Origin: a virus
Virus record (IMG/VR): IMGVR_UViG_3300021178_000001
Span: 1 to 64,000 of that record
Length of the DNA stretch: 64,000 nucleotides
Reading direction: 5' to 3' (one strand)
A model generated the notes under the pieces. That model had not been told where the DNA came from. It saw only the letters and a list, made by a program, of their open reading frames with translations, and did no database searches. The position numbers and the translations under genes are program-made. Below, piece after piece: positions 1-9,752 of the stretch (the first letter of the stretch is position 1; each line of letters begins with the position of its first letter).

Positions 1-148
1 AACGACACAATCTGCGGAAAATTCAGGATATAGCGCCGTCATCAAGGATTATTCTGACAAAATGTTTGGAAAAACTAAGGATGACCCTTATTCTATCTTA
101 TCGATATTAAAGAGCTATTACAAAGGTACACAGATGAATATAATTTAA
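1..148 (+). CDS. 3' end of a gene entering the window; probable head-tail adaptor/neck protein
   Basis: Frame starting at nt 2 is open: TTQSAENSGYSAVIKDYSDKMFG...KGTQMNII* (TAA 146-148). Function inferred from position and resemblance to neck-protein C-termini. Confidence 0.4.
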   Translation, partial: TTQSAENSGYSAVIKDYSDKMFGKTKDDPYSILSILKSYYKGTQMNII

Positions 149-186
149 CAGTGTGCTTATCTGTTAATCTCTGATACATTTAAACT

Positions 187-1116
187 ATGCAAACTCTTGA
201 TAAAATAAATAATTGGGTCATCTATGCTTTGACATTTCCTAACGGAAAAAAGTATATTGGCTTATCTTCCAACTTAGAACGCCGTTTGCGAGATCATAAA
301 AGCCGTGCCAAGACTTTGCAAATGAAAGTTGGCCGTGCTATTACAAAATATGGTTTTGATTCAATTAAAGTGTCTACTCTAGCATCTAGCTTAACGCATG
401 AAGCAGCTTGCGCTCTAGAAATCGCTTTAATAAAGGAGTTTGACACTTACAAGTCGGGATACAACTCTAGTTTAGGTGGTGAAGGGGTCACCGGAGTTCC
501 GGCATGGAATGTAGGTATACCAGTTACTCGCGAGCAGAAGCTCAAGTACGCAGAGTCGCGAGAGTGTAGAGAATTTAGAGCTATAAATCGTGAAACTGGT
601 AAAGAAGTCTGGCGAGGACTTTTGCAAACCGAATGTTTGACTGCACTTGGTTTTCCGCAATCTTATAAAGGCAACCTGAATACATGTTTGTCTGGTCAAC
701 GTAAAACCATAGCTGGCATTTACTTCGAATACTTAGATGAGCCAAAAAGTGCGCGCGACGTATCTAAACATCTATATTGGGAAGATCAGAAATACAGAAG
801 TAAGACAACTAAGGCCATGTCTAAAGCTACCAACAAGCGCCGTTCAGAGATGTCTAAAAATGCAAACACGCTGTGGGCAGATTCAACTTATTCTGACAAA
901 CTAATGACTCAGCGTGCGGATCCAGCGTACAGAGAACACATTGCAAAGACACGAGGAGCTAAATTATTCGAAGTCTCAGAGCGCGAAACTGGAAAAGTTA
1001 TATGGTCGGGGTACAATCAGTCTGAATGTTGCAGATTTCTCGGTACTACAACTCCGCCTAAAAGATATCTTTCTGGCAAGCTAACTCATGATTACTTAGT
1101 ATTTAGGTATACATAA
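187..1116 (+). CDS. GIY-YIG homing endonuclease with NUMOD-type C-terminal DNA-binding repeats
   Basis: VIYALTFPNGKKYIG...LERRLRDH...E...GYN motif set; repeated 'RETGKxxWxG..Q.EC' units; AT-richer than neighbours. Confidence 0.85.
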   Translation: MQTLDKINNWVIYALTFPNGKKYIGLSSNLERRLRDHKSRAKTLQMKVGRAITKYGFDSIKVSTLASSLTHEAACALEIALIKEFDTYKSGYNSSLGGEGVTGVPAWNVGIPVTREQKLKYAESRECREFRAINRETGKEVWRGLLQTECLTALGFPQSYKGNLNTCLSGQRKTIAGIYFEYLDEPKSARDVSKHLYWEDQKYRSKTTKAMSKATNKRRSEMSKNANTLWADSTYSDKLMTQRADPAYREHIAKTRGAKLFEVSERETGKVIWSGYNQSECCRFLGTTTPPKRYLSGKLTHDYLVFRYT

Positions 1117-4020
1117 ATGACCTACGACGAACTCACATCTAAACTCCTCAAAGCTCCCTCCGACCTAGGATGGGCGGACGCCGGCGCGTCGTTGGCGACC
1201 GAGAACACCGACTCTCTCCTCAACCGCGTGGAGGACAAGTACTTCGTGTCTAAGAAGCACTTGAACGAACTCGCCTCAGAACTCAAGAAGAACTTGAAGG
1301 ACGGAGAGAACGACACCCACGCTCGGTTCAATCGGAACCGCACGATTTACTTGGATACTCCCGACCTCGACTGCTTCAAGGACGCGGTCTCGGGCATCAA
1401 GCCTCGCTTCAAGATGCGCGTTCGCCAGTACGCTCCGAACGACAAGCCCTTCGAAGACGTGGCTTACTTGGAGCTCAAGATCAAGACCGAGACCGGACTC
1501 ACCAAGAAAACTCGCTTCCGCATTCCGGCTTGGATGGTCCACGACATCTCGAACGGCAAACCAATTCCGACCAACGACGAGTTGGTCAACCTCAACCGCG
1601 AGATCACTCCCGCGGCGCTGACTCACCGCATCGGAGTCATCAACTCAGTTTTGTCCAAGTATGGTTTCCGTCGCCAGGTCGTGGTCGAGTACCAGCGCCG
1701 GGCCTACTCCAACGACGACGTTCGTGTGACCGTAGACGACTACCTGATGTACAAGGACAACCGACCCGTCGTCGAAGAGATAGAGAACGTCTCGGGCTGG
1801 AAGAGTGTCTCAAAGGTATCCGACCGTCTCAAGAACAACAACATGCTGATTCTCGAAGTCAAGCACAAGTCCGCTCAACCCCCGTGGATTTCAGAGCTTC
1901 TCAAGAAAGTGGAAGCCGAGCCCGTAAAGTTCTCGAAGTACTGCGCCGCTATATACAGCATGGTCGAAGATCCCAAGAAGTCGGACTCGGGTTCGTTGAC
2001 TCGCAACACGGTGATAGACATCGCGCCCTTGATGACTCTGTTCGAAGACGCTTCTCCGATGCAAAAGTCAACGAAGAAAGACTTGGCCAACATAGCTTAC
2101 GTAGTTCTTCGCGACAAGAACTTCGTCTTGGTCGGCAAGCGAAAGAACAACGACAAGTGGGGTTTACCCGGAGGTCGTTTCGAAGACGGAGAAGACAAGG
2201 AAGAAGTCGCGCTTCGCGAACTTAAGGAAGAGACCGGGATTAAACTTAAGTCCGGAGACTTGACTTACGAAGGTAAAAAGGTAGTTGAGACGGACGACGA
2301 GATCAAGACCGTTTACATTTTTTCTGGAAAGCATCCCGGAGGAGAGCCTGAGACGAAGGACGACGAGTTCTCCAGCTGGGAGTGGATTCGCTGCGAGAAC
2401 GGGATGCTGCCGGCTAAGATCTTAGAAGACAAGATGAACGGCCCGACCGAAGCCGCGTTTGAGAAGATGGGCCTCACGAAAGCAGAACCGATGAATAAAG
2501 CCGTGTCAAAGAAGACTCTATTTTACGTGTGCGTCGTTCCTATCAACTCGATGGGCCAAGTGTTGCTCGGCGAGCGCAAACAAGACGGCATTTGGACTAC
2601 TCCAGCCGGTGGAGCAGATCCCGGAGAATCTCCGGAACAAGCCGCCGTGCGCGAGGCTTGGGAAGAAGCTGGACTAGCCGTCATTCCCTCGATGCTCGAG
2701 TCCATCGGCATCAAGGAAGCTCCGAACGGAAAACCAGTTCACTGCTTCATGGTCCGCACCGACCAAACAAATCTGTCGGTCCGCATGGATCCAGACAAAG
2801 AAGTTGCGGCTTGGAACTGGTACTCGCGAGAAGATCTTCCAGCCGGTTTGTCTCGTCAGAAAAACGCCAACCGCTTGACCACGATCACGAGGGCTCTCAT
2901 GAAGTTCTACGGTTTAACTAAGGCAGAATTAGAAATGGATTCTTTGACAGACAAGCTGAACAAAGGTGGTCCCGGATCGGGTCAAGCAGGTCATATGACA
3001 GCCAAGAAACCGGGACACCCCCAAGTCGGCGGATCTACTCCCGAAGCTCCGACCGTCAACAAAGTCAAGGCTCACTTAGAGCTTCTCCGCAACGGCAGTG
3101 TTCTCCCCGGAGTCCACACCGCGTCCGGTAAGCCTATAGTGACGAGCATGGACTCGGCGAAAGCTCAAGGGTACGACGAGCAAGACCACGTCGACGCCAT
3201 GAACGTGCACTACAACATGGCTCAAAAAGTCAACGCCACGATCGAGAAGATGAAGATGGCCGGTAAAGAAGTCCCCAAAGAAGCCCGTGAGATAGCTAAG
3301 TTTCACGAGAAGCAAATGAAGGCCAACATGGCCGCTCGCGACCACTTAGAGGACCAAAAGAACGTGATGGCTCAGCGCAAAAAGAAACCGATCGCCGCAG
3401 TAAAGAAGTCAACCACTCAGATGGGATCCGGACTCGGAGACCGCGACTTAGACGTCGGTCAGTACGCTCAGACTCGCGCCCACGCCGACCGAGAGTGGCT
3501 GGAGAAGCTGTACGTAGGCATGGAGAACTCCCACTTCGGTGACTCTCCCGAGCACTTCCATACCGACAAGGGCGTATTACACTTGTGCAAGGTGGACGAC
3601 GGCTTGTACTCCGGCTTCTTCACCAACCAAGAGCTGGTGGGCGACGGGATGCTCCAAGACAACGCCAAAGTCCGAATCGAGCGCATCACGATTCCAGAAC
3701 TAGTTCAGTTCATGACCGCCAAAGAGTGGATCAAACCGGCCTTTGAGGACATTCCAGTCGCGCCGCCCGAACCCGTTAAAAAAGAGTTCAACGAGGGCGG
3801 ACTTCCCGCCATGTTCTCCGAGACGGCCCCGAGCGCCGCTTCAGAACCGCTCCAGGGCATCAAAGAGCCCAACTCTGTGGCCGTAGTCAACAGCCCAATA
3901 ATGGAGTCGTTGACCGAAAAGTTAAGTTCTCCTCCCCCTTCCGTTCCCAACATAGTTCAATTCGAAGTCAACGAGCAAAAGATCCGGATGCTGGAGCTAG
4001 TCTCCAAATTGTTGAGTTGA
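1117..4020 (+). CDS. Multidomain protein: VTC/CYTH-like (polyphosphate polymerase-family) domain, two Nudix hydrolases and C-terminal unknown modules
   Basis: RVEDKY, IYLDT, KMRVRQY, YLELKIK, YQRRAY, RVTVD, ILEVK and FSKY are VTC-domain motifs. Two intact Nudix boxes: GGRFEDGEDKEEVALRELKEETGI and GGADPGESPEQAAVREAWEEAGL. Confidence 0.8.
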   Translation: MTYDELTSKLLKAPSDLGWADAGASLATENTDSLLNRVEDKYFVSKKHLNELASELKKNLKDGENDTHARFNRNRTIYLDTPDLDCFKDAVSGIKPRFKMRVRQYAPNDKPFEDVAYLELKIKTETGLTKKTRFRIPAWMVHDISNGKPIPTNDELVNLNREITPAALTHRIGVINSVLSKYGFRRQVVVEYQRRAYSNDDVRVTVDDYLMYKDNRPVVEEIENVSGWKSVSKVSDRLKNNNMLILEVKHKSAQPPWISELLKKVEAEPVKFSKYCAAIYSMVEDPKKSDSGSLTRNTVIDIAPLMTLFEDASPMQKSTKKDLANIAYVVLRDKNFVLVGKRKNNDKWGLPGGRFEDGEDKEEVALRELKEETGIKLKSGDLTYEGKKVVETDDEIKTVYIFSGKHPGGEPETKDDEFSSWEWIRCENGMLPAKILEDKMNGPTEAAFEKMGLTKAEPMNKAVSKKTLFYVCVVPINSMGQVLLGERKQDGIWTTPAGGADPGESPEQAAVREAWEEAGLAVIPSMLESIGIKEAPNGKPVHCFMVRTDQTNLSVRMDPDKEVAAWNWYSREDLPAGLSRQKNANRLTTITRALMKFYGLTKAELEMDSLTDKLNKGGPGSGQAGHMTAKKPGHPQVGGSTPEAPTVNKVKAHLELLRNGSVLPGVHTASGKPIVTSMDSAKAQGYDEQDHVDAMNVHYNMAQKVNATIEKMKMAGKEVPKEAREIAKFHEKQMKANMAARDHLEDQKNVMAQRKKKPIAAVKKSTTQMGSGLGDRDLDVGQYAQTRAHADREWLEKLYVGMENSHFGDSPEHFHTDKGVLHLCKVDDGLYSGFFTNQELVGDGMLQDNAKVRIERITIPELVQFMTAKEWIKPAFEDIPVAPPEPVKKEFNEGGLPAMFSETAPSAASEPLQGIKEPNSVAVVNSPIMESLTEKLSSPPPSVPNIVQFEVNEQKIRMLELVSKLLS

Positions 4021-4074
4021 CTTTTGATATAATTGATACAAGCCTTTTCAAAAGTTAAGTTTTAGGAGACTCTG

Positions 4075-5541
4075 ATGCCCGACATCGAACAAGAAATTCA
4101 GCAAGTTGCAGACGGTTTAGAGAAGTCCACTCAGACTCCCAAAGAACGGTTGTTCGAGACTATCAGACACTTGGGTCCCGCAGAACTCAGAGCTCGCATG
4201 GCTGGTCTCGAGAAGAGCGAGAAAGAGTTGCTCTTGGACGCCTTGACCGAGATGAAGAAAGCCGTCGAGATGGACAAAGAGTACGCCGCCGAGTACGTTC
4301 AGGGCAAGCTCAAGGCCACTAAGATTCAAGAAGACAAGGCAGACGACGACCAAGACGAAAAACTCGTGTTTAACTCTCCGGAAGCCGTCACCGTCAACCA
4401 CCAAGGCACTCCGACCAACGGTTGGGAAGGCCAAGTCATTAAAGGTAAAAAAGACATGTCTGATAAAAAAGAGCCGAAAGATTCCAAGATCAAAGAAGCA
4501 AAGAACCAACCCGAAGACGCCGAGGACCACCAACTTCGCAGCATGAAGAAGTCGGTCGAGATCCTCAAGAAGCACGGCGCCATGATGCTGGAGATGTACC
4601 CGGACGACATCGAGAAAGCTCACGTCGGTTTCGCTGCCGTAAGCGCCAACGCCGCCAAGCACGGAGCCGACGACCCAGACGCCGTCGCAGCCGCCGTGGG
4701 ACGCAAGAAGTACGGTAAAGAAGGAATGGCTAAGCTAGCCGAAGCGGGCAAGAAAAAAGAAATGAAGAAGGGCGAGGACATGGAAAAAGCTTACGGTGAG
4801 GGAATGTGCAAGAAGCAAGGTGTTCCAGAAGGCATAGACCCAGCCAAGCAAGAGCGCTGCGTGCGCAAGCTCAAGGGTGAGAAGGGCAAGAACGCCTACG
4901 CGATCTGCAACGCTTCCATGAAGAAGGGCCTCCCAGTAACGACTGAAGTTAAAGAAGCCCTCCTCGAGATCAAGAAGTCGATCGAAGAGCAGCTCCAAGG
5001 CTTCGGTCAAGAAGCTACCCCAGAACTGATCAAGGCTGAGATGAAGCGCCTCCTCAAAGAAGAAGACCAAGACGGTGACGCTCCCGAGATGAACGTCAAG
5101 ACTCGTGCCAACAAAGAAGACGTGGCAGCTCTCGACCTCGCCGAAGACAACAAGAAAGCTCAAAAGAAAGTGGACGACGAGAAGCAAGGTCAAAAGGGCG
5201 AAGTGAAGAAAGCGATTTGGGGCGGCGAGAACGACCTCCTGAAAGCCAACACGAACGGACGCAACTTTCACTTCTCGATGGAAGAGCACCTCGCTTGGCT
5301 GGAAGTCAGCAAAGCCGGTGTTAAAGTAGAAGACTTGAACAAGTCCAGCGAGAAAAAAGACGACTTGAACGACATCATCGCCAAGTCTCAGGACACGACC
5401 TGGGGTCACATCGAGTGCGAGACCTTGATCAAAGCCAACGACGCCAAGCGCGGTAAGGTATTCAAGTCCTTCGAGAACAAAGAGATTCAAGAAGCTTTGG
5501 GACTCACTGACGAAGAGGCCCGTAAGATATTAGGGGAATAG
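4075..5541 (+). CDS. Highly charged probable internal head/scaffold-like polyprotein
   Basis: K/E/D-rich; about 16 copies of hydrophobic-x-K-[S/A/G]; GATATAAT promoter-like box near 4026 and AGGAG RBS upstream. Confidence 0.55.
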   Translation: MPDIEQEIQQVADGLEKSTQTPKERLFETIRHLGPAELRARMAGLEKSEKELLLDALTEMKKAVEMDKEYAAEYVQGKLKATKIQEDKADDDQDEKLVFNSPEAVTVNHQGTPTNGWEGQVIKGKKDMSDKKEPKDSKIKEAKNQPEDAEDHQLRSMKKSVEILKKHGAMMLEMYPDDIEKAHVGFAAVSANAAKHGADDPDAVAAAVGRKKYGKEGMAKLAEAGKKKEMKKGEDMEKAYGEGMCKKQGVPEGIDPAKQERCVRKLKGEKGKNAYAICNASMKKGLPVTTEVKEALLEIKKSIEEQLQGFGQEATPELIKAEMKRLLKEEDQDGDAPEMNVKTRANKEDVAALDLAEDNKKAQKKVDDEKQGQKGEVKKAIWGGENDLLKANTNGRNFHFSMEEHLAWLEVSKAGVKVEDLNKSSEKKDDLNDIIAKSQDTTWGHIECETLIKANDAKRGKVFKSFENKEIQEALGLTDEEARKILGE

Positions 5542-5577
5542 TTCCTCCTCAACGATTTATAAAGAGTCACCACGAGA

Positions 5578-5624
5578 GCCGGGGAAAGGAGTTCAAACAG
5601 CTGACTTCCCCGGCTAGTTTATTT
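5578..5624 (+). terminator. Stem-loop followed by T-rich tract
   Basis: AGCCGGGGAA (5578-5587) pairs with TTCCCCGGCT (5606-5615), followed by AGTTTATTTT. Confidence 0.5.
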
Positions 5625-5636
5625 TAGGAGTCTAGG

Positions 5637-5942
5637 ATGGATCTGAACGACGCGAAAAGCAAGTGGAGTAAGTTCGTGTCTTCATTGAACGACCAAGGCG
5701 TACCAGTTCCGATGATCAGGGACCCAAAGACTGGCAAGGGATCAGTTTCTTTGACTTTGGTGTTTGTCAGCTTCAACGTGTGTCTGATCTCTTTCTTCGG
5801 TAGAGCCGCCGGGTTCTTTGGGGGAGTCAGTCAGACAGAGTCATTCAACATGTTTTTGGCCGCGTGTGGACTTTATTTCGGAAGAAAGTTTCAAAAAGAC
5901 GGTTCTAAAGTTGAAGTGTCAGAAGAGAAGAAGGACCGATGA
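5637..5942 (+). CDS. Small two-TM membrane protein, possible holin
   Basis: Two hydrophobic stretches and a charged C-terminus; AGGAG RBS. Confidence 0.45.
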   Translation: MDLNDAKSKWSKFVSSLNDQGVPVPMIRDPKTGKGSVSLTLVFVSFNVCLISFFGRAAGFFGGVSQTESFNMFLAACGLYFGRKFQKDGSKVEVSEEKKDR

Positions 5943-7102
5943 GCAAGTACGGACACAACAACGCGACTAAAAAAGCTCGAGGTTGGAACGTTCCCGAACC
6001 CGTCGTTTTGCCCGAAATCAATCCTCAAGGCCGCATCGACTTAGACCCATCTAAGTTTGACTTACTGATTCAGCAAAAAGGCATCGTTGCAAAAGTTTAC
6101 CGCACTTTGTATTGCCCAAACGTTAAGAGTTGCGATGGGGCCGAGCATGAAATCGACTGTACTTTTTGCAACGGTTCCGGTTTCTTGGACGTCGACCCGA
6201 TATGCGTCTATGTCTTCATTCAGACTCAAGAACTCGACAAGCTCCCGAACGTCGAGGGATTCGTGGACGGCAACACCGTGCTGATCACCTTCCCGATCGG
6301 CGTCGAGATGCAGTACTTCACCAAGATCGAGCTCCACGACTTCACTGAGGTTTATCCCCAGCGCGTCTTGAGGAAACCCGGAGCCTTGACGGATATCCTA
6401 AAGTACCCCGCGTGTCGAGTCAACGTGCTCATCGACCGCAACCAAATTCGATACTTCCAAGAGATGGACTTCACTTTGGACTTGAACGGCAACGTCAAGT
6501 GGCTGACTGCGGGAGACCAGCAAAAAGTAGCTTTCTCGGCGGTCCCAGACTCGGGTTCGTTCACTCTGACTTTCGGATCGTTTACCACCGCTCCAATTCC
6601 GTTCAACGCTTCGGCCGCTCAAGTGGAAGCGGCTTTAGAGTTGACCTCGGTTTTGGCCAACGTGACGGTGACGGGTGACTTCACGACTGGCTTCAAGGTG
6701 ACGTTCGTCGGAGTTGACTCTCCCGTCGCGCTGTTGACCTCGAGCTCGTCTCTGGCACACGGGGTCACTCCCGTGACGATCGCAGTGACCGACGTGGCGA
6801 TCGCGGCCCGCAAGCCGAACGACAACGAGCCGTACTCCATCCACTACGAGGCGAGGGTCCAGTACCGCGCCAAGATGGCGGTGCACTCCAACCGCTTCAC
6901 TCAGTTCGCCACGGGCAACCAGATCCAGCACGTGAAGATGAACGAGCAGTGGTACTGTGCCAAAGAGTTTTTGGTCAAGCTCACCGACAAGTTCACGGCC
7001 GTCGAGTTGCAGCAGGGACCTTACGACGCGCACAAAATTGTCATCGAAGACGGCGGAGACCCGGCGGGATCAGGTTCCGGCGGACCGGACGACAGTGATT
7101 AG
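5939..7102 (+). CDS. Neck/head-completion protein with an inserted beta-sandwich surface domain
   Basis: CP...C..CNGSG zinc-like motif seen in myovirus neck proteins; insert GSFTLTFG..TTAPIPFNASAAQVEAALE resembles a surface-protein repeat domain. Confidence 0.5.
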   Translation: MSKYGHNNATKKARGWNVPEPVVLPEINPQGRIDLDPSKFDLLIQQKGIVAKVYRTLYCPNVKSCDGAEHEIDCTFCNGSGFLDVDPICVYVFIQTQELDKLPNVEGFVDGNTVLITFPIGVEMQYFTKIELHDFTEVYPQRVLRKPGALTDILKYPACRVNVLIDRNQIRYFQEMDFTLDLNGNVKWLTAGDQQKVAFSAVPDSGSFTLTFGSFTTAPIPFNASAAQVEAALELTSVLANVTVTGDFTTGFKVTFVGVDSPVALLTSSSSLAHGVTPVTIAVTDVAIAARKPNDNEPYSIHYEARVQYRAKMAVHSNRFTQFATGNQIQHVKMNEQWYCAKEFLVKLTDKFTAVELQQGPYDAHKIVIEDGGDPAGSGSGGPDDSD

Positions 7103-9752
7103 TCTCCGTCTTCACAGTTCATCTTTGAACAAACAGTTAAATATGGAACGCTATCTTCTAAGTCTTGCAGTTCGTCTGGAACAATTCGTCCTTTTGACAC
7201 TAGCCTGAATCTTTTGATCGCCAGTTTCTCTCTCTTTTTTATCTGACTCATAGCACGACTTAGAAACTTTGTTAAATCATAGTTCAAGTTGGCTTCTAGG
7301 TTCATGGAGACTTTTTTGATCTCAATCGGTGTCTTACTCCACGCTTCTACAAAGTCTTTAGCCCAGTTCTCATACGGAATTTCGTCCAGCAATACGCGGT
7401 CACAGTTTAGAACTCTCCATCGGTCTTCTGCGTAAGAGTTATATGCGCTGTCGGATTTGTCGTTTTCTTGACATGCACCCCACGATCTTCTACGTTCTTG
7501 AATGCTGTATTTTTCAATTCGTAATTTCATTTTAAACTCCTTCAAGGACATTCTAGTGGATTGTGACCGTTTTTAGTTAGCACTCTTACACACCGTTCGT
7601 GAGCTTGCTTATAAGATGTGAAAGAACTCACCAAATTTTCTACACTGAAAATAAGCACGAACACTTGGAATAAGAACATAATACAAATGAATTTCACGCT
7701 ATCCCCTTGTTTCTCTCGACTCGTCTCCAACCCAAACTCTCTAGTTCTCTAACTTCACTCTCGACGGGACCCAGCAGCGCGTACAACGTGCCCAAGAACT
7801 TGAAGTTCCGGTCGTGCAGGTCGCACGTAGCGTCGATCTGGCAAAACCCTTGGTCGGTCTGATAACCCGACGCTTGGACGTGTATGACGTCCTCGCCCTT
7901 CCGCAGCCAGTAGTGTTTTGACTCGTTCTCGTGCATTTCAGTGACTCGCCTCCACTACCGTGTCATCCAAGAACGGGTGTCTGATTTTTCCTAAAATCAC
8001 TTCCGAGTTCCACTCTCCCATGTACGACAGTTCGACCTCGTCGTGGTGCCCCAGACAAAACACTAGGCGCACTTGGGACGTCAAGTCTTCGATGGTGTCA
8101 GTGACCAACCTCAACCGCCGGCACAAATAAAAGTCCATGGACTCGCTGTTGGCGGGGATGGCGACGTACTGGGCGTCGGTTCTGGTGTCTTTCTTGTACA
8201 AGAATCTCATGGGTGTTCCTCAATCGTTCGTTTTGTAATCATGGCTTTGTCAAAGTTACACTTAACTTTCGCGTTCCATTTTTCAGCTTCTTTCTTTGCG
8301 TGGTCTTCAGAAAAGAATAGTCCAATTTGAACGTCGCCGCCTGGACTCGATCGCCAAACTTCGTAGACTTCTACGCGGTCGTCTGTGCGCTTGTCCATAG
8401 GTCCATAGTAGAACACCGGATGAGAGTTGTCGTCCTCATACGTTTCTTGAGCGTCTGGACGATGCACTTGAAGATGTTGGTGAACTAAAGCCAAGACATC
8501 CCCCCATTGGAGATCATGTTGATCGACCATGCGATCTAGGACTTTCTCCAAGTCGAGCAAAATGTCACCCAGTCTCTCTCGTTTCTTCTTCATCATGTTA
8601 TTTCCTACAGTGGTGCGACATGTTGTTTATCCAGAGTGCCGTCATAGCTCCTATGACTTGGCCAGTGTTACTAAACCCAAAGTACCGCATACCGAATATA
8701 CATAAGATGATGGCAGGCACTTCTAAAGTAGCAAAACACAAACGCATAAGTAATCTCTTCATTTGATCTTCGCCTTTCCTGGATCGCCGGCGCCCCAGTA
8801 AGGCCTCGGCATGAATTCTTCGGGCTTCATGTCGTCCAGCAGCCACCTGGGCTTCGCCATGACGACGTCTACGTAAGCTTCTAACTTGAGAGCTTCCACG
8901 ACGGCTAGTGCCCACTCACAGCCAGACCCAGACCAAACTACGATGTAGTGTCCCTTGTGGTGGTGGGTCATCAGTGACTCCACGTTGTCGGAGTAGACTT
9001 GGTAAGTAGCTTTTACATCGTTGAAGTCAATTTCTATGACGCCACGAATATTGATGCATTCTGGAATATGCTCTAATTGAGACCAACTCACGAGAGTGTC
9101 GTCTACATCTACACAAACGACTAAGTCACTCTTTAAAATTTGCACCTAAAACCCCCAACCAAATGTAAATTGCCCGCCGTTTGATCTTACCGTAGTATTT
9201 ATCGAAGGCATCGCGCCGTTGTTTTTTATCAACAGCGTTGAAACTTCTCGGTCTTTGATCACTTTCGCCGTAAATAAAGTCACAGCCAGCACTTCGGGCC
9301 CGGTCACAGACACCGCTTTGGATTGAGCTATCTTTGTCGCCTTGTCCTCTACGTTCGCGGTGCTTTGCTTCACGTTGTACTGCAAAGACGCAGCTTCCAC
9401 CGCCTTAATGCAAGCGGCGTGTTGGTTGCCATACAACCCGACGCACGCTTGAGTGATCATGAACTCGATCAGCATTTGGCTTTCCTCAACTTACTCTTCT
9501 TCAACTTAGCTTCCTCGCGACATGCCTCAAACTTCTTGCCGTGACCTCGGGTTCTCTCTATGACGATCTCAGTCCGACCTCCGTGAGAGTGGAGCTCGTG
9601 TACGGCCCGAACGTTCTCGAACGTAGTGATCGTCATCCACTTTGACAGCCAAGTCATGGCGATGTGCCCGGTGTCGAAGATAACTCCCTCGGCTACGACT
9701 CCGAGACCGGAGTGCCCGTGGACATCTGAGTGTCTGAGTAAGTAAAAAGTTT

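Follow-up and report, generated by a model that had tools for sequence, protein, structure and literature searches.

Phages are most exposed to host defences in the time before their first genes are expressed, and enzymes that are pre-loaded into the virion represent one answer to this exposure. To our knowledge the worked-out cases are few: IPI and Alt of T4, Dar of P1 and the vRNAP of N4. As outlined in PMC9958956 (section 3.1), the non-essential proteins IPI-III and Alt of T4 sit in the prohead core, with a short leader acting as the targeting signal. The protease gp21, besides trimming the capsid protein and degrading the scaffold, trims IPI-III and Alt, which are subsequently injected with the DNA. 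In phiKZ and SPN3US many head proteins are cut at one motif, by gp175 and gp245 respectively, and are then ejected (abstracts of PMC10052503 and PMC7411985). The subject of this report is a polyprotein of 967 amino acids (aa) encoded near the start of IMG/VR virus record IMGVR_UViG_3300021178_000001, a single 114,255-bp contig of a phage from soil, whose first 64 kb (positions 1 to 64,000) constitute the window analysed here. In this polyprotein a VTC-family domain and two Nudix domains precede a module termed here the carrier, and the joints hold a short lysine signal, hydrophobic-x-K/[S/A/G] (h-x-K/[SAG]), where the slash marks the proposed cut. Because the joints carry the lysine signal of capsid trimming, loading of the enzymes into the head and their separation there are probable, and on balance we favour a reading, built from sequence comparison, in which the polyprotein is head-targeted cargo that the prohead protease would cut at its joints.

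The start of the open reading frame (ORF) is confirmed by homologues with the common N-terminus M-x-Y-x-x-L-x-x-K-L-L. Its parts, in nucleotide positions of the window, are as follows, with model confidence given as the predicted local distance difference test (pLDDT).

1117-4020, plus strand: polyprotein ORF, 967 aa, in the order leader, VTC, Nudix 1, Nudix 2, junction, carrier module
1117-1152, plus strand: leader, 12 aa, with the first of the L-[TV]-x-K-L helix motifs, ending LLK/A, the first candidate cut (after K12)
1153-2067, plus strand: VTC module, aa 13-317, with the Pfam core at aa 36-282 (nucleotides 1222-1962), ending MQK/S
2068-2481, plus strand: Nudix 1, aa 318-455, whose Nudix box (aa 353) is intact, ending GLTK/AE
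2482-2499, plus strand: spacer, 6 aa, between two candidate cuts (after K455 and after K461), pLDDT below 50 over aa 456-465
2500-2922, plus strand: Nudix 2, aa 462-602, whose Nudix box (aa 498) is intact, ending GLTK/AE
2923-2964, plus strand: junction peptide, 14 aa, containing the helix motif and ending LNK/G
2965-3000, plus strand: delimiter GGPGSGxxGHxT, with which the carrier module begins
2965-3408, plus strand: carrier sub-module 1, aa 617-764, with a disordered start, a small beta hairpin and a long helical hairpin, ending VKK/S
3409-4017, plus strand: carrier sub-module 2, aa 765-967, with two helices and a small beta domain, a Pro-rich tail and the conserved C-terminal helix
3952-4014, plus strand: conserved C-terminal helix of the carrier, aa 946-966

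A preliminary description of this DNA, made from the letters alone, had read the protein as VTC, Nudix and Nudix, and Pfam bears this composition out. The VTC family PF09359 is matched with E 4.5e-36 over positions 1-234 of its 235-position profile (125 bits against a cut-off of 23), and NUDIX PF00293 is matched by two stretches (E 2.3e-39). An AlphaFold2 model built on 28 homologues (mean pLDDT 77) contains five folded units; beyond these come a disordered tail (877-946) and a terminal helix, and pLDDT falls below 50 between the folded units at aa 13-31, 299-321, 456-465, 614-645 and 758-776. The first folded unit is closest, by Foldseek, to the tunnel domains of yeast Vtc4 and Vtc2 (E 3e-13 to 1e-10, TM(target) about 0.6), with E. 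coli YgiF a weaker match at 2.7e-8; a phmmer search of the VTC part against PDB sequences gave no match at E <= 0.01. The Nudix box has the consensus G-x5-E-x7-R-E-U-x-E-E-x-G-U, of which the polyprotein contains two strict matches, at aa 353 and aa 498. Structurally the two Nudix units group among NudC/NUDT12, MutT1 and RppH (Foldseek). Their sequence matches in the PDB are scattered over MutT, NUDX1, Ndx1, NUDT18, RppH, Ap4A and ADP-ribose enzymes at E 1e-8 to 1e-10, the best being a generic MutT/Nudix match for Nudix 1 (E 3.4e-10) and Ndx1 for Nudix 2 (E 1e-8). Pfam finds no polyvalent-associated domain (LPD, ART-PolyVal, MuF and similar) in the polyprotein at E <= 0.01. Four copies of the L-[TV]-x-K-L helix motif are present, in the leader, the junction, the tail and the extreme C-terminus, and there is no copy in the other 146 ORFs of the genome.

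Where does the lysine signal fall within this architecture? A regular-expression scan with [LIVM]-x-K-[SAG] returns seven sites, at nucleotides 1144-1155, 2059-2070, 2473-2484, 2491-2502, 2914-2925, 2956-2967 and 3400-3411, the same seven that the preliminary description had listed, and the GLTKAE ending it had reported for both Nudix domains is present in two copies (aa 452 and 599). With linkers defined by proxy as those 10-residue blocks whose pLDDT in the AlphaFold2 model averages below 70, all seven motif lysines lie in linker blocks, as against 26 of all 94 lysines (hypergeometric P = 6.4e-5). When residues are shuffled within each region, the linker blocks hold 7 sites against 1.46 expected (P = 4e-4) and the folded blocks 0 against 2.9 expected (P = 0.043), and five control motifs, including the reversed motif and one with Arg for Lys, show no bias between linker and folded blocks. 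The motif, which the preliminary description had placed at domain borders, is found in the linker blocks and nowhere in the folded ones, with a caveat at K602, whose block has a mean pLDDT of 55 and lies between two predicted helices. Taken across the 40 sites in the polyprotein, its neighbour, the scaffold, the protease and the capsid protein, Glu or Asp is favoured at P5 and P4, and Ala or Ser is favoured over Gly at P1'.

The sites are also conserved. A word-indexed search yielded 34 homologues, all metagenomic, of which 28 were aligned; P0027 and P0030-P0034, without Nudix or carrier parts, were omitted. At the K317 joint h-x-K-[SAG] is found in 24 of the 27 sequences with a residue there, and in members lacking VTC this column is the leader that precedes the first Nudix domain. 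The site after Nudix 2 is conserved in 17 of 26 aligned sequences, VKK/S in 14 of 18 and another joint site in 14 of 17. Over 27 homologues, 85 of the 105 aligned motif matches (81%) fall in linker blocks of the polyprotein, compared with 29% of all lysines and 18-42% for the control motifs, so that the border position of the motif holds across the homologues as well. This conservation bears directly on a rival account that we consider unlikely, in which a virion protein is trimmed only at its leader or within the carrier, while the enzymes stay fused, or act in the head or in assembly, and are not ejected. The sites between the enzymes are as conserved as those of the leader and carrier and lie in segments of pLDDT below 50, and the double cuts, which would free the 6-aa and 14-aa spacers, resemble scaffold-type processing. 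Such fusion has a precedent in N4 vRNAP, packaged unprocessed according to PMC5512222; moreover, K602 lies between two predicted helices at middling confidence, and nothing in the analysis bears on ejection.

For the reading of the polyprotein as processed head cargo, a further line of evidence is the family to which the carrier belongs. The module is usually C-terminal, in proteins of about 300 to over 1200 aa, and a profile search returns 153 representatives at E <= 1e-3 and 45 at <= 1e-30. The set scanned here comprises 57 proteins. From the 150 representatives listed, 48 were taken, with P0075, P0079 and P0086 added to the full 45 at E <= 1e-30, and 9 closer relatives came from among the 34 homologues. 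By Pfam the cargo in these 57 includes 42 cases of NUDIX, 8 of DUF5661, 6 of VTC, 4 of LPD1 and 1 ADP-ribosyltransferase; cargo domains are thus swapped between relatives on a common carrier, as the preliminary description had envisaged. Other members hold modules of about 100 aa without assigned function. A module of about 115 aa common to P0003 and P0010 lies between delimiters and recurs in different carrier proteins.

In this family the joint signal is longer than four residues, h-x-K being followed by GG[PEA]GSGxxGHx[TS]. The 57 members contain 61 copies of this delimiter, with the preceding lysine present in 61 of 61 and a hydrophobic residue at P3 in 60 of 61. The four-residue motif that had been put forward as the border is indeed present at borders, but the strongest family delimiter is the extended form, h-x-K then GG[PEA]GSGxxGHxT. 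Members of about 330 aa without cargo open with a leader of 6-28 aa that ends in h-x-K/GG, and because these cargo-less members begin with leader and signal, the delimiter marks the start of the carrier, and cargo is placed between its repeats. The most conserved feature of the family is the copy of the L-[TV]-x-K-L helix motif at the C-terminus of the carrier, in which L965 is invariant and L961 and K964 nearly invariant over the 57 sequences. The carrier module occurs in no record of the phage collection, A511 included; a tblastn search of that collection with the whole polyprotein gives 8 records, all through the Nudix part and none covering 80%. Among the literature matches listed for GGPGSG there is no phage paper.

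The four-residue motif is also found in head proteins of this genome, whose ORFs (147 in all) come from our own greedy caller and not from an annotation. The head block, which also holds two ClpP-fold genes, includes the following.

Genome 85890-87941: portal gene
Genome 94792-95880 (L002 10792-11880): prohead protease gene, phrog_1028
Genome 96266-97129: scaffold candidate
Genome 99040-100458: capsid protein gene, phrog_752, 472 aa

Whether the capsid protein carries the motif, a question that the preliminary description had raised, is answered by a single copy, ALQK/A at aa 28-31, at the N-terminal trimming place as judged from alignment with A511. This copy aligns with the mature peptide start annotated for A511 Cps in NC_009811 (residue 24, DALK/S), the A511 cut position being taken from the mat_peptide line of that record, and also with ELRK/A of the capsid protein of Myxococcus phage Mx1. 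No statement on cut sites was found in PMC3601020 or PMC6409932. Matches to the capsid protein come from 109 phage records, for the most part SPO1-like myoviruses of Bacillus and Staphylococcus, the best being at about 31% identity with Bacillus myoviruses, and the prohead protease is 37% identical to the A511 protease over the catalytic domain (E 5e-31). In the non-catalytic tail of the protease, aa 246-260, a cut-type site precedes a Leu/Lys helix similar to the junction helix of the cargo, and this common helix may be a docking peptide.

A genome-wide test of the motif covered 104 proteins of at least 100 aa, and the neighbour and the scaffold rank highest in enrichment. The 488-aa neighbour of the polyprotein has 18 copies against 3.12 +/- 1.67 expected, a number reached in 0 of 3000 shuffles, the scaffold has 8 against 1.6 (P = 3e-4) and the protease 6 against 2.0 (P = 0.014), and the five control motifs are flat in neighbour and scaffold. 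The neighbour is a candidate second core or scaffold protein which, to judge from its sites, would be cut into small peptides of about 10-60 aa. Its gene and the one preceding the polyprotein lie in the window as follows.

187-1116, plus strand: GIY-YIG homing endonuclease gene, which abuts the polyprotein ORF, is outside the proposed system and is absent at the syntenic locus L006
4075-5541, plus strand: Lys/Glu-rich protein, 488 aa, with the 18 motif copies

The contig L006, of 9.7 kb, is the single contig from which the synteny is known; it was the 1 locus obtained among 433 pattern matches when viral contigs were scanned with the homologue alignment, a scan of viral contigs with a single protein giving no locus and a scan of metagenome contigs 0 loci among 170 pattern matches. 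Its gene order, with a carrier gene, a Lys/Glu-rich gene, a small membrane protein and a phrog_1004-like structural gene, is the same as in the window, where the third gene after the polyprotein ORF (5939-7102) matches phrog_1004, 'virion structural protein'. Neither the GIY-YIG nor the HNH homing endonuclease gene of this genome is present on L006; it has two other genes, for proteins of 128 aa and 295 aa, to which none of our called ORFs corresponds. The L006 homologue of the 488-aa protein (L006 3789-5315) has an 85-aa insert exactly at the site equal to TEMKK/A of the window, and this cassette starts with the delimiter and ends with another h-x-K/A. As for the position of the polyprotein gene, which the preliminary description had placed among neck and head genes, the phrog_1004 gene is indeed nearby, but the capsid gene is about 15 kb away and the sheath gene 14 kb away, and a homing endonuclease gene adjoins.

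Several further genes upstream of the cargo locus were noted. An HNH homing endonuclease gene (genome 112743-113315, L003 8743-9315) is also directly upstream of the cargo gene. A 183-aa protein (genome 111507-112058, L003 7507-8058), lying among unassigned structural-looking genes and with a weak PHROG match to 'enoyl-CoA hydratase/carnithine racemase-like' (E 1.4e-9), was considered as head protease and set aside, the phrog_1028 gene being the better candidate. A Thr/Ser/Gly/Asn-rich protein of 1044 aa (genome 107695-110829, L003 3695-6829) contains an internal duplication, is matched by neither Pfam nor PHROG and is possibly a fibre or decoration protein. A promoter and terminator scan of window positions 1-7400 gave nothing that bears on the cargo question.

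VTC is also found beyond this carrier. With or without Nudix it is joined to other C-termini, in some cases together with GNAT and DUF5661, and these proteins have conserved h-x-K/[SAG] sites of their own. The VTC-Nudix pair recurs on a second, unrelated carrier, for which a lytic transglycosylase (SLT) C-terminus is only weakly hinted: of four proteins in one scan only P0020 has an SLT match, below the cut-off (E 0.0014, 18.7 bits with a cut-off of 21.3), with none in three further proteins of the group, P0015, P0024 and P0034 (Pfam, E <= 0.001). The metagenomic protein P0033 (821 aa) combines VTC with an RNase_T exonuclease and an Acb1/2H phosphoesterase and is without the carrier module. 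Among phages, the best match to the Nudix part is a 1479-aa protein of the cultured phage Mx1 containing GNAT, ART-PolyVal and NUDIX (L007 9220-13659), annotated 'NUDIX hydrolase' and encoded between the capsid and sheath genes. In Mx1 the motif is enriched in a pre-capsid protein (5 against 1.5) and in a 312-aa protein (7 against 1.6). The Mx1 gene product annotated 'putative prohead protease' is 1239 aa long. Among the literature matches listed there is no Mx1 virion proteome.

How might such a system operate? The carrier, about 350 aa long, would bring the chain into the prohead core, perhaps by means of the helical hairpin and the amphipathic helix at its C-terminus. To judge from the sequence statistics, the A511-type protease would trim the capsid protein after the Lys of hydrophobic-x-K/[S/A/G] and would cut the same signal at every joint of the polyprotein, as on the scaffold. 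Cutting at these joints is predicted to release a tunnel enzyme of the VTC family (35 kDa) and two Nudix hydrolases (15.5 kDa each), along with two fragments of the carrier. If T4 Alt and IPI are taken as the model, the enzymes would remain in the head until they pass into the cell together with the DNA, and would act before phage gene expression. Our confidence in ejection and in an anti-defence role is lower than in head targeting and processing. The targets are most likely polyphosphorylated nucleotides or nucleotide-based immune signals, given that relatives pair VTC with an Acb1-like 2H phosphoesterase, an RNase T-type exonuclease and GNAT; this domain company, together with ART, argues for anti-defence or takeover enzymes that act on nucleotides. 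A bolder version, which we put forward as a tentative possibility, is of a plug-in system in which any enzyme placed N-terminal of the carrier and bounded by h-x-K/GG[PEA]GSGxxGHxT would be loaded, freed by the capsid protease and injected, with the delimiter and the L-[TV]-x-K-L motif forming a loading and release code, and in which the VTC and two Nudix enzymes would here destroy polyphosphorylated nucleotides or immune second messengers in the first seconds of infection.

A number of observations weigh against head loading and processing. Over the whole polyprotein the motif is not enriched, with 7 copies present and 2000 shuffles giving 4.46 +/- 2.0 (P = 0.15). The homologues are related to one another, so that counts over the family are not independent. 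Once 104 tests are corrected for, the enrichment of the neighbour and of the scaffold stands; that of the protease does not, and two unrelated small proteins have similar values (P = 0.014 and 0.016). The scaffold and protease of A511 show no enrichment (2 against 1.3 and 2 against 0.96). The ALK/S of A511 Cps had been cited as the known parallel, and while a Lys/Ser cut at the aligned place stands, A-L-K/S is a near match and not the same motif, because its hydrophobic residue is at P2 rather than P3 and the regular expression misses it. The Nudix substrates cannot be assigned, because the PDB matches are generic (E 1e-8 to 1e-10). The polyprotein gene lies outside the portal-protease-scaffold-capsid block, with the capsid gene some 15 kb upstream, on the far side of the contig ends, and the sheath gene at a distance of 14 kb downstream.

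The carrier adds to these points, since there is no direct tie of the module to capsids. The last 350 aa match no Pfam or PHROG family, Foldseek gives no match in the PDB at E <= 0.001, and the ESM Atlas offers neither a usable match nor a cluster. BFVD likewise has no match at E <= 0.001; its entry at rank 2, an uncharacterised 'Nudix_Hydrolase domain containing protein' of an uncultured phage, is probably a member of the carrier family. With VIA-align wide the best Z is 8.0, for generic helical hairpins only and within the range common for this tool, and 2r9i, a 72-aa 'putative phage capsid protein domain' (Z 7.6), falls within the same range and was not used as a link to capsids.

From the chance-level motif count of the whole protein, the lack of a link between the carrier and any known structural family, and the position of the gene outside the head block beside homing endonucleases, it could be argued that this is an ordinary cytoplasmic multi-domain enzyme of nucleotide or polyphosphate metabolism, neither packaged nor cut, whose linkers resemble the cut site by chance. 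We regard this as improbable: the motif is confined to linkers and depleted within domains, its four-residue context is kept at the joints in 14-24 sequences per site, the Lys before the delimiter is invariant, in the cargo-less members of 330 aa the short leader at the start has the same signal at its end, motif copies saturate the adjacent gene, and the order beside a virion structural gene is syntenic in L006. Very unlikely is the idea that the junctions are mainly recombination joints for cassettes, or docking peptides, with the Lys incidental or serving a ClpP-fold or host protease, for although the delimiter is conserved 12 residues past the Lys, beyond the needs of a cut site, the L006 cassette is bounded by it and two ClpP-fold genes lie in the head block, such joints are compatible with cleavage and leave the single capsid copy at the trimming place and the scaffold enrichment unexplained, while A511 has a Lys/Ser capsid cut and a homologous protease, and no ClpP-type gene is annotated in the two A511 stretches covered (within record 36000-100000).

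Why does head loading and processing, as favoured here, matter? A family of uncultured phages seemingly uses one carrier and one cut-site code for changing sets of enzymes and, if this is true, the polyprotein would be the first pre-loaded case with a VTC-family domain. Should the code hold, it would provide a rule by which packaged effectors could be recognised from sequence in metagenomes, a prediction, open to testing, of each mature N-terminus and a possible handle for packaging foreign proteins. The occurrence of the VTC-Nudix pair on two unrelated carriers points to an unexplored nucleotide or polyphosphate target at DNA entry. A literature search found no paper in which either a VTC domain or the combination of a triphosphate-tunnel enzyme and Nudix is connected with phages, and none on packaged Nudix in virions among the matches listed.

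Compared with the described systems, the proposed likeness to the IP and Alt proteins of T4 is that the capsid protease also processes head cargo, which is then ejected. In T4 the cut is after Glu and removes only the leader, whereas the polyprotein has h-x-K/[SAG] between several enzymes of one chain; the T4 leader targets to the core, whereas here a C-terminal carrier is proposed, and there is no sequence similarity. The prohead protease of phiKZ and SPN3US is of a different clade with a Glu-type motif, and in these jumbo phages the cargo is mostly not built as enzyme polyproteins. A511 is closer: the two capsid proteins belong to one lineage (their first 100 aa are about 27% identical), its protease is 37% identical, and its mature peptide is annotated after Lys23, at the place aligned with the capsid ALQK/A. 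It differs in the hydrophobic P2 of its A-L-K/S, in a scaffold that is not enriched and in being without the carrier module.

The polyprotein is like the polyvalent proteins (Iyer et al. 2017, PMC5512222) in that unrelated effector domains (VTC and two Nudix) are joined in one phage polypeptide with predicted delivery alongside the DNA. Domains of the polyvalent type occur in relatives, LPD1 in 4 and ART in 1 of the 57 carrier members and ART-PolyVal in the Nudix homologue of Mx1, but unlike those proteins the polyprotein itself is without an LPD domain. The text of that paper mentions NUDIX once in passing and neither VTC nor CYTH, and it proposes embedded zincin peptidases for processing, where here the prohead protease would act at a capsid-type site. 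With the polyphosphate polymerase Vtc4/Vtc2 the VTC module shares a full-length Pfam match and the alternating charged residues of the tunnel strands, which are conserved across the homologues; identity is only 22-24% and SPX and membrane domains are absent. The link to Acb1 is through P0033, which joins VTC to an Acb1/2H domain; the polyprotein is without Acb1, and what is shared is a neighbouring domain only. Set beside the known head cargo processed by prohead proteases, the system would, as far as sequence can suggest, be new in its carrier, its delimiter and its cargo.

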